From Alphaproteobacteria bacterium (GTDB lineage Bacteria; Pseudomonadota; Alphaproteobacteria; Micavibrionales; Micavibrionaceae): 37,067 nucleotides of DNA. The position numbers and the translations under genes were made by a program. Where the stretch lies: NCBI GenBank assembly GCA_002701555.1, contig NZVS01000078.1, positions 1 through 37,067 of the forward strand, read 5' to 3'. Below the pieces are notes generated by a model that was given only the letters and a program-made list of their open reading frames with translations, made no database searches and was not told the origin of the DNA. This document shows positions 21,941-26,278 of the stretch, one piece after another (within the stretch, counting starts at the first letter, position 1; every line of letters begins with the position of its first letter).

Positions 21941-22963
21941 TTACCCGAGTGCCAGTTGTGGTTCTTGAGCAGGTGCAGGCGTTCTGGCAGAGGCATAAAC
22001 CTGATCTACATCTTCCTGAAGACTGTCACAACGATTCATCCAACCTCTATAATTTCTTGTGTAAACAGCCTTACCCGTGGCGTTTAGACTTGCATAATGA
22101 TTTCTTTTTAAATCGACCAACTCATTACCATCTGCTACCCCGTCATTTCTGGAGGCTGTAGCAATGTGTTGTCTGGCTTTACCGACACCGGCATTTACCG
22201 CAGTGTCAAATGCAACTAGACGGGCGGCCGGATCAGAAATATTTTCAATTCCTGCCTTATCCCAAAATTCACGCTTATAGAAATCTTTTGTTACTTCAAG
22301 TGCTCCTTCGCGGTCGCCTGATCTCAAAAGACCCATTACTTCATTATATGTTCCTTGGTGGTATTTGGATGCTATACCGAACACTGTGGCTCCCCCGGCA
22401 TCATATTTTCCATCATGCCAACCACCTTCATGAGCCAAAACCTTGTCAAAGGCTTCATCGTAACTACCGTCAAATGCACCGTTTTCTCTGAGCTGAGCAG
22501 CAGAAAGACCTGCAGCGGCAGAAGTTACACCTGTTGCTAGAGCGGCGGAAGTAGAGGCTGATGAAAGGTCAATATCACCATTAGAATCAAGCTCTATACC
22601 TTCCAGATCTTTGATCATTTGCTCGATCTGTTCAGGGTCTAAATTCTGCCCATTCAATTCAGCAGTGGATTCGTAATAATGTCCGAGAAGCATAAGAAGG
22701 ACATAGCCTTCATCCTCGCGCGAAACTTCACGGCCTGTATTTGCGCTTGGCTCCTGAGAATATGGTTTTGCGCCGCTAACCATATTGAAGTTATTTGTAT
22801 TTGTTGCTTCAGCTTCCTGGTTCAAATCCAAAGCACCCTGTCTTGCAGGATTAGAAAATCTCTCTGTTATCCCGTTACCGGAAATACCGCCAGCATTGCC
22901 TATTGCCAATGCTGCGTGGCTGGTAGTGCCTAAGGCTGATGATTTAACTGTTTCTTGTACCAT
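21941..22963 (-). CDS. GH108 N-acetylmuramidase with PG_binding_3-like C-terminus and unknown N-terminal region of about 165 aa
   Basis: FDKVLAHEGGWHDGKYDAGGATVFGI matches the GH108 EGG...D.GG.T..GI signature. C-terminal ...NYRGWMNR resembles PG_binding_3. No signal peptide. Confidence 0.8.
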   Translation of the reverse strand: MVQETVKSSALGTTSHAALAIGNAGGISGNGITERFSNPARQGALDLNQEAEATNTNNFNMVSGAKPYSQEPSANTGREVSREDEGYVLLMLLGHYYESTAELNGQNLDPEQIEQMIKDLEGIELDSNGDIDLSSASTSAALATGVTSAAAGLSAAQLRENGAFDGSYDEAFDKVLAHEGGWHDGKYDAGGATVFGIASKYHQGTYNEVMGLLRSGDREGALEVTKDFYKREFWDKAGIENISDPAARLVAFDTAVNAGVGKARQHIATASRNDGVADGNELVDLKRNHYASLNATGKAVYTRNYRGWMNRCDSLQEDVDQVYASARTPAPAQEPQLALG

Positions 22964-22969
22964 GCTTAT

Positions 22970-22999
22970 ATTCTAGCGTATCTTTCTTAACAAATGCAA
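22970..22999 (-). promoter_or_regulatory. Sigma70-like promoter abutting the GH108 ATG (predicted leaderless)
   Basis: On the minus strand: TTGCAT, 18 nt, TAGAAT, 6 nt (ATAAGC), ATG. No SD. Confidence 0.5.
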
Positions 23000-23031
23000 A
23001 ACAACTCAAAAAATATATATTTTTCAATCTG

Positions 23032-24135
23032 TTAAGATATTACCGGGCCATGGTATTCTGGCGTTGCATTCATACCTTGTTTGTGACCAAGTCCTGCTTG
23101 CTGATATGACTCTCTAGCCTCATTGATGAGACCTTGTCTAACTGAACTATCACCAAGATTCTGGCCCATAGCGCTTGCCGGGCTTACAATCTGATATCTG
23201 CCGTTGCCATCAGCAATTCCTACTTCAAAGTGCAGGTGAGGCCCAGAAGAGCGCCCTGTACTACCACTTTGGCCAATAACTGTGTCCGGACCTACAGTTT
23301 GTCCTTCTCTAACATCAACATCACTCAAGTGAGCGTAACGTGTAAATAAGCCGTTGCCATGGTCTATATCGATGTATTTACCCCATCCGTCAGCATCGTT
23401 TCCAACATTATGTACACGGCCTTCTGCGGCAGCGTAAAGATCGGTACCTGTAGGAACAGGGTAATCCCCGCCTTCATGCATTCGTGATCCACCACGGTGT
23501 ACAATATCCTGGCCTGTGCGATAGTCACCTTTTATAGGGAATTGCAACGTTACATTACCATCTGAAGAGAAAGTGCTTCCACCTTCTATTGAAGGCCCGT
23601 CATGATCATGTCCGGCACCGGCAGCCATACCCGCTCCTGCGACACCAAGTCCAGGAATTAGGGATGAGAACATCTGACCGATAAGACCTTCTATATTCAT
23701 GCCTTCCAGGCTGTTGCCATTTGCCTGACCAAGGCCAAAAACTTCCATAATAATGGTCATGAATATACCCATGCCAATATTCTCGGTTACCATATCGGGC
23801 ATTCTGTCCGCAACTTGCTGAGTGCGTTCTACTGATTCATCTAAAAGTGCTGTTTCTTCAGGTGTCATTTCACGACCCTCTGCGCGAGCATTGGCTTGAG
23901 CCTCTTCGTATGCGCGCTGGCGTAAAGTCGCCTGGTCATGTTCATTATGCCTGTCCATTCTATCATCGCGTAATTGAGCTTCTGCATCGGGCTGTTCGGT
24001 GCGGATAGAAGATTCGGGGGGAGGGCCTGCAACCGCGGTTTCAGGACGAATTGACGCCGCAGGCGGTGCAGCGGCAACTGCTGGAGCAGGTTGCTGTATC
24101 TGTGGTTCTCTTTCTTGTGTTGCTGTTATAGCCAT
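23032..24135 (-). CDS. M23 family metalloendopeptidase with long non-canonical N-terminal region
   Basis: HEGGDYPV (HxxxD) and SGPHLHFEV (HxH) motifs, plus IDIDHGNGLFTRYAHL. The N-terminal ~190 aa are Pro/Ala/Gln-rich, then charged, then one hydrophobic Gly-rich stretch. No Sec signal. Confidence 0.85.
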   Translation of the reverse strand: MAITATQEREPQIQQPAPAVAAAPPAASIRPETAVAGPPPESSIRTEQPDAEAQLRDDRMDRHNEHDQATLRQRAYEEAQANARAEGREMTPEETALLDESVERTQQVADRMPDMVTENIGMGIFMTIIMEVFGLGQANGNSLEGMNIEGLIGQMFSSLIPGLGVAGAGMAAGAGHDHDGPSIEGGSTFSSDGNVTLQFPIKGDYRTGQDIVHRGGSRMHEGGDYPVPTGTDLYAAAEGRVHNVGNDADGWGKYIDIDHGNGLFTRYAHLSDVDVREGQTVGPDTVIGQSGSTGRSSGPHLHFEVGIADGNGRYQIVSPASAMGQNLGDSSVRQGLINEARESYQQAGLGHKQGMNATPEYHGPVIS

Positions 24136-24141
24136 ATTTAT

Positions 24142-24171
24142 ATTCTATATAACTCTTATATTCATTACCAA
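24142..24171 (-). promoter_or_regulatory. Sigma70-like promoter abutting the M23 ATG (predicted leaderless)
   Basis: On the minus strand: TTGGTA, 18 nt, TAGAAT, 6 nt (ATAAAT), ATG. The 10-mer TAGAATATAA is identical to, and at the same offset as, the one in the GH108 gene. Confidence 0.5.
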
Positions 24172-25412: not shown

Positions 25413-25418
25413 ACAATT

Positions 25419-25424
25419 AGTATA
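25419..25424 (-). promoter_or_regulatory. -10-like hexamer abutting the ATG of the 352-aa orphan (predicted leaderless)
   Basis: On the minus strand: TATACT, 6 nt (AATTGT), ATG. No SD and only a weak -35 (ACTAAA at 17 nt). Confidence 0.35.
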
Positions 25425-25525
25425 TGGAAAATAGGTAAAATTTTAGTTAATATTGGTTAACGCATTTAACCCACTGAAAATGCAGTTAAATAATGGGGAT
25501 TTAATAACTTTAATACTTGGAAATA

Positions 25526-26242
25526 TTAAAATGGGGTAGGGCCAGCCAATTCGGGCTTGGGGGCAACATTTGCAAAGGCTTCACGTCTGACTATACCATA
25601 GACGAGCAAAGAAGACATTTCAGGATCGTAACCCTGACCATCGCACATGCTTTCGATTTCGCGAGCAGTAATGCATGGTTTATTGGCCTCAGGCGCGCCC
25701 TGATTAAATAATTCAGGCCTGTTCCGTTGTAAATTTTCCATCATTGAGCCTGCATCTTGAGGTGCGGCGTTTGGATATACACCTAAATCTTCGGGTGTAA
25801 TATCGTATTCATCAATTTTACTGTCTATAGCCTCGGTAATGTCGGGGTTGCGCACATCTATACCTGAATTTTGTTCAAGAGATACAAGGGCTTCCTGTAA
25901 ATCCGCCAATGCTGCCCGACTGAGCGCAAGATTTTGAGGTCTGAAGATCTCTAGCCCTGCGACAGTTGATGCGAAAAGCTTTTGTATTTGGGCCCGTCTT
26001 AAGAAAGCAGCTTTTTCGGCTTCTGTGCCTGAATAGCTTGCGCCAGCTCGTCCTTCGATTGAATGTGAGCCAACAGTGCGCCCCTGTACAACACCGCCTG
26101 AACGAAAGTCTGTGAAGATGCGGCTCCATACATCATTGTTTAGAAGCGACGGTTCACCTTTGGCAACAGCACCCTGCGTTGATAGACGGGTATCCCGCTG
26201 ATCAATCTGGCTTGCATAACTTGTTCGGACAGAATTATTCAT
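25526..26242 (-). CDS. Orphan protein (238 aa from ATG at 26242)
   Basis: ORF with no recognisable domain, signal peptide or TM segment. Start set at MNNSVRT because a consensus -10 sits 7 nt upstream and covers the alternative ATG at 26251. Confidence 0.65.
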   Translation of the reverse strand: MNNSVRTSYASQIDQRDTRLSTQGAVAKGEPSLLNNDVWSRIFTDFRSGGVVQGRTVGSHSIEGRAGASYSGTEAEKAAFLRRAQIQKLFASTVAGLEIFRPQNLALSRAALADLQEALVSLEQNSGIDVRNPDITEAIDSKIDEYDITPEDLGVYPNAAPQDAGSMMENLQRNRPELFNQGAPEANKPCITAREIESMCDGQGYDPEMSSLLVYGIVRREAFANVAPKPELAGPTPF

Positions 26243-26249
26243 AATTTGC

Positions 26250-26278
26250 ATTATAAGGGACGGACGCAGTAAAATCAA
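26250..26278 (-). promoter_or_regulatory. Sigma70-like promoter abutting the ATG of the 238-aa orphan (predicted leaderless)
   Basis: On the minus strand: TTGATT, 17 nt, TATAAT, 7 nt (GCAAATT), ATG. Confidence 0.55.

Follow-up and report, generated by a model that had tools for sequence, protein, structure and literature searches.

A sucC-adjacent cassette of predicted peptidoglycan hydrolases in Micavibrio-like bacteria, with a recurrent C-terminal tail as a candidate export address

The DNA analysed here (the window) is a stretch of 37,067 nucleotides, positions 1 to 37,067 of contig NZVS01000078.1 in GenBank assembly GCA_002701555.1, from an uncultured marine Micavibrio-like bacterium. Beside sucC it carries a cassette of four consecutive genes that encode two proteins of no known family (orphans A and B), an M23 metallopeptidase, and a GH108 muramidase. 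The cassette recurs in one chromosomal slot in related species with its catalytic domains interchanged, and most of its proteins, orphans included, end in a short [A/G]-P tail that was found in none of the housekeeping proteins of the same loci. The account that we lean towards, with slightly less than even confidence, is that the cassette is a vertically inherited, lineage-specific set of predicted peptidoglycan hydrolases and two non-enzymatic partners, which would be exported independently of Sec, addressed by their C termini, and used on the walls of prey.

The cassette and its slot

A check of the open reading frames (ORFs) confirmed the four consecutive minus-strand genes of an earlier note on this DNA, which lie at 21941-22963, 23032-24135, 24354-25412, and 25526-26278. 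Outward from sucC, the genes and their parts are:

25526..26242, minus strand: orphan A, 238 residues from the ATG at 26242; acidic, without a signal peptide; terminus ...LAGPTPF
24354..25412, minus strand: orphan B, 352 residues; acidic; coiled-coil repeat QRQLEM, tail rich in Pro; terminus ...AAPAIG
23032..24135, minus strand: M23 metallopeptidase (M23b), 367 residues; low-confidence N-terminal 220 residues, M23 domain, C-terminal helix; terminus ...YHGPVIS
23722..23775, minus strand: Gly-rich hydrophobic patch of M23b, residues 121-138
23218..23484, minus strand: M23 catalytic domain, residues 218-306; Pfam Peptidase_M23, E=5.9e-28
21941..22963, minus strand: GH108 muramidase, 340 residues; 165-residue low-confidence extension, then a two-lobed muramidase; terminus ...EPQLALG
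21986..22477, minus strand: folded muramidase part, residues 163-326, from AlphaFold and Foldseek

The ORF of orphan A can be extended to a TTG at 26278, which would give 250 residues, and its isoelectric point (pI) of 4.9 was computed on that version. The 238-residue form, which the earlier note had also used, is preferred because TATAAT lies 7 nt upstream of its ATG and alignments of orthologues begin at that residue. Both orphans had been described as lacking any recognisable domain, and neither had a match in Pfam, NCBIfam, or PHROGs. A phmmer search with orphan A against 1.84 billion representative proteins returned only the protein itself, and the profile of its family had no match in the PDB. 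Weak yet consistent homologues of orphan A adjoin sucC in the related loci L001, L006, L029, and L030, and the proteins at the position of orphan B in L006 and L029 are related to one another. Relative to the orthologues in Micavibrio sp. EAC75 (L004), the ratio of nonsynonymous to synonymous divergence (dN/dS) is 0.12 for orphan A, 0.12 for orphan B, 0.09 for the M23 protein, and 0.04 for the GH108 protein. All four genes are under purifying selection, and the values for orphans A and B mark them as real genes.

The proposed GH108 domain was recovered by Pfam Glyco_hydro_108 (PF05838) at residues 172-259 over the full length of the profile (E=2.4e-15; 57 bits, cutoff 21). Its catalytic signature, HEGGWHDGKYDAGGATVFGI, is present at residue 178, with the catalytic glutamate in HEGGW (residues 178-182) and E179, G180, and G181 invariant in the subfamily alignment. 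AlphaFold models residues 163-326 with confidence, and the top Foldseek match of this part is Brucella SagA (7dnp, probability 1.0). A PG_binding_3 domain (PF09374) usually, though not obligatorily, follows a GH108 domain, and the end of this protein had been called PG_binding_3-like. Pfam gave no PF09374 match at E<=1; the model, however, best fits two-domain SagA, whose C-terminal bundle binds peptidoglycan, and the confident helical lobe at residues 200-326 aligns to SagA. In M23b the motifs HEGGD (residue 220) and HLHFEV (residue 300) are intact, as the earlier note had read them, and the zinc ligands H220-x3-D224 and H300-L-H302 are invariant in the family alignment. The predicted local distance difference test (pLDDT) score is 72-88 for residues 221-346. 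Full-length relatives of M23b are P0007 and P0008, and its orthologues measure 342 residues in L029 and 389 residues in L030. Judged by their motifs, both enzymes are predicted to be catalytically intact, and in themselves they are ordinary members of their families.

M23b also contains the Gly-rich hydrophobic stretch remarked on earlier, at residues 121-175. Segment 120-138 has a borderline Kyte-Doolittle value of 1.57, contains a Glu, and has a pLDDT of 41-44. The patch is kept in P0008, and only 8-9 residues of it are left in the L029 and L030 orthologues. A transmembrane anchor of the MepM or ShyA kind is unconvincing given this borderline hydropathy and the shorter or absent patch in orthologues. 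A FlgJ-like Rod-binding domain was likewise considered and rejected: MAFFT set P0081, an otherwise unrelated M23 hit with a weak Rod-binding match (E=0.002), against the hydrophobic stretch, but the Rod-binding domain (PF10135) had no match at E<=10 in the window M23 protein or in P0008.

In all cassette loci the slot lies between sucC and DUF2336/ZapE/TatC (or mdh). The earlier note had proposed that the four genes act as a set and that their co-occurrence be surveyed across related genomes. The cassette does recur, in the same order and the same slot, in five other species-level genomes (L001/L005, L004, L006, L029, and L030), and a variant is found in L031. Outward from sucC, the gene orders are:

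Window and EAC75 (L004): A, B, M23b, GH108
L029: A, B, M23a, GH108, M23b
L006: A, B, M23a, GH108, NlpC/P60-like
L001/L005: A, 146-residue protein, NlpC/P60-like, GH108
L030 (closest by DUF2336): A, B-position protein, M23a, M23b, GH24 'Phage_lysozyme' in the GH108 position
L031: 292-residue protein, NlpC/P60-like, SLT

The order is thus orphan, orphan, hydrolases, and GH108, GH24, SLT, M23, and NlpC/P60-like domains are interchanged in the slot. The fixed position between housekeeping genes in at least six species indicates vertical inheritance. A stable slot with changing enzymatic domains looks like an arsenal, and not like one dedicated housekeeping enzyme.

Two observations concern exchange within the cassette itself. 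A 1.5-kb segment at 21990-23530, which covers GH108 and the catalytic half of M23, is 93-100% identical in DNA sequence to the EAC75-type strains L004 and L035, whereas identity to these strains is ~78-86% in the flanking genes and in the part of M23 that lies N-terminal to the catalytic half. Synonymous divergence (dS) is 0.14-0.19 for GH108, 1.0 for sucC, 1.3-1.5 for orphans A and B, and >2 for zapE and DUF2336. The segment has the appearance of a recombination tract or sweep of recent date, by which catalytic domains passed between species. In L030, the M23b orthologue (15687-16856, 389 residues) has an N-terminal segment that resembles the C-terminal lobe of the adjacent GH24 lysozyme (BLAST 2e-4 to 3e-7). 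Such a segment, perhaps a remnant or a second muralytic lobe joined to M23, agrees with the shuffling of domains within the cassette.

The catalytic domains also raise the question of a phage origin. The GH108 part matches a PHROG 'endolysin' family (E=1e-23) and, weakly, the NCBIfam 'holin-associated N-acetylmuramidase', and phage endolysins align to it at 27-35% identity. With the GH24 'Phage_lysozyme' in the GH108 position of L030 and a small protein with two transmembrane (TM) segments beside sucC in L001 and L029, these matches could suggest a domesticated lysis module of phage or gene transfer agent type, with enzymes that would escape either by way of a holin (type 10-like secretion) or when a subpopulation of cells lyses. 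The phage matches, however, are restricted to the catalytic part of GH108 and never reach the extensions. The interval 21000-30000 contains no holin-like small TM ORF, save antisense artefacts, and no homologue of the two-TM protein of L001 and L029; no other phage genes adjoin the cassette. The G+C content is native, and the fixed position in at least six species speaks for vertical descent. We regard such a lysis module as improbable. A foreign or mobile origin of the cassette was rejected on the same native composition, the lack of mobility genes, and the fixed synteny.

The C-terminal tail as a candidate address

Of the 26 cassette proteins, 16 end in the pattern [GA]P.{2,6}$, as against 0 of the 90 housekeeping proteins encoded at these loci (Fisher 3e-13), and the pattern spans eight of ten unrelated cassette families, the orphans among them. 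At internal pseudo-ends of the same cassette proteins it occurs at a rate of 3-4%, so the tail is specific to position and is not mere richness in Pro and Ala. When the window's own proteins are set aside, 13 of 22 still match (binomial 1e-13). A measure that does not depend on the pattern, the last Pro lying no more than 8 residues from the end, holds for 22 of the 26 cassette proteins and 19 of the 90 housekeeping proteins (p=5e-9). The consensus has [A/G]-P at about positions -7/-6, an aliphatic residue at -2, G, S, or A at -1, and few charged residues. The tails of the window proteins are:

25529..25543, minus strand: tail GPTPF of orphan A; terminus of the L004 orthologue GPAPS
24357..24371, minus strand: tail APAIG of orphan B; PAIG terminus kept relative to L004 beside an indel-rich linker
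23035..23049, minus strand: tail GPVIS of the M23 protein
21944..21964, minus strand: tail EPQLALG of the GH108 protein; kept in L004 beside an indel

Between the window and EAC75, the tails are thus conserved next to linkers rich in indels. Elsewhere, orthologues and non-homologous members end in, for example, GPALELA, APAFELS, GPVAGL, GPAAGM, GPEFNA, APAPVLA, GPAPAWG, GPSPNLG, APAYTIS, and APTYTVH. The cassette proteins also have a median pI of 4.7 and half the Cys content of their neighbours.

Hydropathy and regular expressions, applied as a heuristic to the four proteins and at least 20 orthologues, detected no N-terminal hydrophobic region, RR motif, or lipobox in the four, in agreement with the earlier reading that Sec, Tat, and lipoprotein signals are missing. 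The same script picked out classic signal peptides in MsrB, DUF3108, and an Exo_endo_phos protein of the window, which served as positive controls. A signal hidden upstream is impossible because each ORF opens at the first start codon after a stop. No Sec signal was seen in any cassette protein of the six related loci, a set from which an SLT-like protein of L032 is left out. That protein (12623-13555, 310 residues, Micavibrio sp. DHS20C02) has a classical Sec signal and no tail, and it is the sole slot hydrolase of this kind that we saw; it fits an arrangement in which Sec signal and tail are alternatives.

The earlier note had sought the export or targeting information in the N-terminal regions. 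Every cassette hydrolase does carry 90-225 non-catalytic residues ahead of its catalytic domain, of low complexity, and in the two proteins modelled they have low AlphaFold confidence (pLDDT <50 for GH108 residues 1-162 and for M23b residues 1-66 and 111-220). Most extensions have a single short hydrophobic patch followed by acidic residues, a description to which no statistic attaches. These extensions could be the true signal, for example a disordered flagellar or type III-like sequence with a chaperone-binding region, in which case the tail would be incidental. Type III signals are disordered and not conserved, so missing homology is compatible with this explanation, and Micavibrio has a flagellar export apparatus. 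Against this, the six extension families (GH108, M23a, M23b, NlpC/P60-like, SLT, and GH24) lack significant similarity in hhalign profile-profile comparisons (best E=0.06). An expectation-maximisation motif search of the first 70 residues gave z=1.3 at width 6 and z=0.3 at width 10 relative to shuffles; only width 8 rose above them (z=5.0), with an Ala-rich, low-complexity pattern. Motifs picked by eye (hF[TS]D, ExFxNA, and a hydrophobic patch with N.G..LE) are therefore not claimed. In addition, Micavibrio is described as contacting its prey at the non-flagellated pole, and the statistically strong shared feature is C-terminal. With neither detectable mutual homology nor confident structure, the N-terminal regions are not supported as export or targeting modules, and we consider an N-terminal signal distinctly unlikely.

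A tail of this kind might instead mean that the proteins are not exported at all. Non-polar C termini are classical recognition tags for proteases, no export signal of a known kind was detected, and SspB, an adaptor of ClpXP, is encoded in the window at 10782-11288, which may well be coincidence. On such grounds the tail could be a degradation or regulatory tag, and the proteins would work inside the cytoplasm, perhaps on muropeptides taken up from prey, or be held latent. Muramidases and M23 endopeptidases, however, have polymeric peptidoglycan as their substrate, which lies outside the cytoplasm, and five wall-cutting folds are under purifying selection. We think a cytoplasmic role very improbable.

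Returning to a C-terminal address, the occurrence of the same tail on the orphans argues that they would travel with the enzymes. Orphans A and B are probably co-exported partners or cargo, as their termini suggest, and not cytoplasmic chaperones or immunity proteins. A bolder claim would be that the tail is a new export or sorting signal of Micavibrionales for a Sec-independent repertoire of at least five catalytic folds plus non-enzymatic partners, delivered to prey by an apparatus not yet identified, and that in the sucC-adjacent cassette an 'effector island' becomes recognisable for the first time in an epibiotic predator of the Alphaproteobacteria. We hold this to be possible and rather doubtful.

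Lineage, predation, and neighbouring genes

The genes that flank the cassette are alphaproteobacterial housekeeping genes (thiolase, glmS, glmU, msrB, sspB, scpAB, tatC, zapE/AFG1, DUF2336, and sucCD), and all close genomes are metagenome-assembled genomes (MAGs) labelled Micavibrio. The nearest named one, Micavibrio sp. EAC75, has 82-83% DNA identity over 17 kb, so the window belongs to a related species and not to EAC75 itself. Other named relatives are Micavibrio sp. UBA2137 and similar MAGs. A search anchored on DUF2336 found several hundred relatives, several of them named Micavibrio or Pseudobdellovibrionaceae, and scans of metagenomes and genomes with the GH108 profile turned up the few lineages already seen and otherwise only distant GH108 proteins of phage type. 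A MAG contig named M. aeruginosavorus stops at DUF2336.

Cultured Micavibrio are obligate epibiotic predators of Gram-negative bacteria. For epibiotic predators, Micavibrio among them, reviews name neither effectors nor a machine to deliver them and do not explain how the prey envelope is breached. The genome paper of M. aeruginosavorus reports secretion systems of types I and II together with a flagellum and no evidence of type III or type IV secretion (PMC3189940). Among the functions that the earlier note had offered, a predatory wall-degrading arsenal appears the most natural because the lineage is Micavibrio-like and, by analogy, predatory. In the position-matched slot of M. aeruginosavorus ARL-13, the hypothetical genes GMV_644-647 are biased towards the attack phase (2/0.7, 14.3/3.3, 8.4/6, and 7.7/4.2). 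The genes on either side, sucC (0.1/25.8) and mdh (1.1/15.9), belong to the growth phase, with strong expression in the attachment phase (PMC3189940 supplement 4). As a positional match, this bias is a hint of a role in predation.

In the mechanism that we propose, the proteins would leave the cytoplasm without Sec, recognised through a C-terminal tail that is not cleaved off. Their route could be a one-step, type I-like export or an unidentified contact-dependent apparatus, the two being equally possible. Until then, the long N-terminal extensions, acidic, poor in Cys, and disordered, may hold the proteins in an unfolded or inactive state. At the attachment site they would act jointly on the prey wall, with the GH108 N-acetylmuramidase cutting glycan strands and the M23 metalloendopeptidase cutting peptide cross-links. 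No immunity-like gene was seen beside the cassette, as had been noted earlier, and a one-step route could account for this because it would bypass the producer's own periplasm and wall.

The main rival is that these enzymes are autolysins that make space in the producer's own wall, opening it for a flagellum, a type IV pilus, or a secretion apparatus, or helping to separate daughter cells, in the manner of SagA, TtsA, or FlgJ. The best structural match of GH108 is SagA, an autolysin tied to the assembly of a type IV secretion system (T4SS); FlgJ variants with M23 domains exist, and one M23 hit, P0081, has a weak Rod-binding match; and the cassette keeps a stable chromosomal position among housekeeping genes. 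The window M23 protein, however, yields no Rod-binding domain even at E<=10, no flagellar, pilus, or secretion genes lie nearby, and SagA and TtsA are single-module proteins of about 175-180 residues without extensions of 100-220 residues. Up to five muralytic folds in one slot, with rapid domain turnover, resemble an arsenal, and the orphans bear the same tail as the enzymes. We judge autolysins to be unlikely, if a serious contender.

Several points weigh against C-terminally addressed export to prey. The tail motif was defined after inspection of the data, the orthologues that carry it are not independent, and 10 of the 26 cassette proteins, the window GH108 protein (EPQLALG) among them, lack it or match it imperfectly. 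A disordered tail rich in Pro might have another purpose, for instance as a degron, a site of proteolysis, or a tag for binding, and the apparent lack of signal peptides was judged by heuristics. No ABC exporter, membrane-fusion protein (MFP), TolC, or type III, IV, or VI secretion part was found in the window or in the ~20-kb related loci. RTX repeats (GG.G.D), which mark most type I substrates, occur in 0 of 26 cassette proteins, no ABC/MFP genes are linked to the cassette, and the tail is far shorter than the classical 50-60-residue type I signal and resembles no signal described so far. Related GH108 enzymes, SagA, TtsA, and phage endolysins among them, are known to attack the wall of their own producer or host. 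Predation is documented for cultured Micavibrio and not for these marine MAGs, GMV_644-647 are tied to the cassette by position, and L032-L034, the loci nearer to M. aeruginosavorus, hold different, unrelated proteins in the slot.

If the tail is a signal, the predation secretome would be predictable from genome sequence and its cognate exporter could be searched for; if it is incidental, the finding reduces to an ordinary lineage-specific cluster of endolysin-like autolysins. The cassette gives concrete candidate effectors for epibiotic predators, with the tail as a testable candidate address tag. The predicted pairs of muramidase and endopeptidase, without immunity partners, may also be of practical interest as lytic agents against Gram-negative bacteria.

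Each cassette gene has its own AT-rich upstream region, as the earlier note had observed: the intergenic G+C content is 23-25%, compared with 44-49% in the coding sequences. The promoter-like sites are:

26250..26278, minus strand: promoter-like TTGATT-17-TATAAT, 3' end 7 nt before the orphan A ATG; found by scan
25419..25424, minus strand: -10-like TATACT, 6 nt before the orphan B ATG; found by eye and unflagged in the scan
24142..24171, minus strand: promoter-like TTGGTA-18-TAGAAT, 3' end 6 nt before the M23 ATG
22970..22999, minus strand: promoter-like TTGCAT-18-TAGAAT, 3' end 6 nt before the GH108 ATG; found by eye, below the -35 threshold of the scan

The -10-like hexamers TAGAAT, TAGAAT, TATACT, and TATAAT thus lie 6-7 nt before the start codons (in 22964-22999, 24136-24171, 25413-25424, and 26243-26278). 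No Shine-Dalgarno sequence precedes any of the four cassette genes, whereas sucC and sucD have one. This spacing of the hexamers and the missing Shine-Dalgarno sequences suggest four separate promoters that would give leaderless mRNAs. A layout of TTGCAA/TTGTAA-17-TATTTT-6-ATG is kept before GH108 in L006 and L029 and before the NlpC/P60-like gene in L001.

Further lineage-specific genes lie on both sides of the cassette:

27709..29184, minus strand: 491-residue protein between sucC and sucD; SLT-like by transitive similarity (NLES ... GLNQF), without a Pfam match of its own
19466..21887, plus strand: paralogous orphans of 394 and 422 residues that flank the cassette on the DUF2336 side; no family assigned

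The genes sucC and sucD, which are usually adjacent, are split at 27709-29765 by the 491-residue minus-strand protein and a 149-residue orphan, both lineage-specific. The similarity of the 491-residue protein runs by BLAST to a 609-residue protein of L001 (2e-30) and the 310-residue protein of L032 (2e-8), and from the latter to a 372-residue protein of L031 with a Pfam SLT domain (E=2e-5), which would make it a third muralytic candidate. Relatives have other insertions between sucC and sucD: a 609-residue protein with the two-TM protein of 81-85 residues (L001 and L029), a 670-residue protein (L032), and ClpP-like genes (L033 and L034). Beside sucC, the loci of more distant Micavibrionales, L033 (8085-10391), L034 (13052-15352), and L032 (13712-15175), encode acidic coiled-coil proteins of 490-770 residues with no signal peptide and no detectable similarity to the cassette, which have a Pro near the C terminus (TPFS, NPALY, and MPNTII).

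The 394- and 422-residue orphans are conserved in position in L006, L029, L030, L031, and L035, and members of their family have a C..hG.HP motif in common. A reading of these paralogues as helix-turn-helix regulators was unsupported by Pfam and the PDB. A second paralogous pair, of 515 and 850 residues, lies at 30686-34786 and likewise has no signal peptide or known domain. Counterparts of both pairs in related genomes measure 465, 480, 413/449, and 406 residues, and 534 and 448 residues; several members of these families have a Pro 2-5 residues from the C terminus.

Comparison with known systems

We did not find described, in the literature searched, a combination of a fixed Micavibrio-like cassette, interchangeable signal-less muralytic domains, and a C-terminal tail common to non-enzymatic partners. 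Its elements do have parallels. The two-lobed muramidase fold of the window GH108 protein is shared with Brucella abortus SagA, the top structural match, and with Salmonella Typhi TtsA. The SagA report (PMC8334348) describes a protein of 174 residues that has a catalytic Glu-bearing motif and, at the C terminus, a helical lobe that binds peptidoglycan. Both SagA and TtsA consist of one module and open the wall of their producer, in contrast to the window protein with its 165-residue disordered extension, its C-terminal tail, and its place among several hydrolases, with neither T4SS nor toxin genes in the vicinity. The GH108 and GH24 endolysins that phages release with holins (type 10) have similar catalytic domains, and the cassette differs from them in being chromosomal, syntenic, and vertically inherited, with no holin and no phage context. 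FlgJ, a muramidase exported by the flagellar type III apparatus and known in M23 variants, is likewise a signal-less wall hydrolase with a non-catalytic N-terminal module and a non-Sec route; the window M23 protein lacks its Rod-binding domain and the cassette lacks a flagellar gene context.

If predation is the right reading, the closest functional analogues would be the prey-wall hydrolases of Bdellovibrio, namely the DD-endopeptidases Bd0816 and Bd3459 and the lysozyme DslA. These are Sec-exported, are not known to form one swappable cassette, come with a self-protection protein, and belong to an unrelated lineage. The Tae and Tge effectors of type VI secretion and the X-Tfe effectors of the Xanthomonadales T4SS are, as in the cassette, modular proteins with interchangeable muralytic domains and no Sec signal, and in X-Tfe a C-terminal region (XVIPCD) addresses the protein to its machine, as is proposed here for the tail. 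Those systems have adjacent periplasmic immunity genes and VgrG, PAAR, adaptors, or the ~120-residue XVIPCD. None of these adjoins the cassette, where scans of the cassette and its neighbours with Pfam, NCBIfam, and PHROGs found no VgrG, PAAR, adaptor, XVIPCD, or other delivery domain, and what the cassette proteins share measures only ~5-8 residues. Type I secretion, a poor fit in the details given above, appears to offer the nearest known logic. Proteins secreted by type I systems carry an uncleaved signal at the C terminus, have an acidic pI, and contain few Cys residues (PMC3034196), and the cassette proteins resemble them in being Sec-independent, acidic, Cys-poor, and, if the tail is indeed an address, directed by the extreme C terminus.

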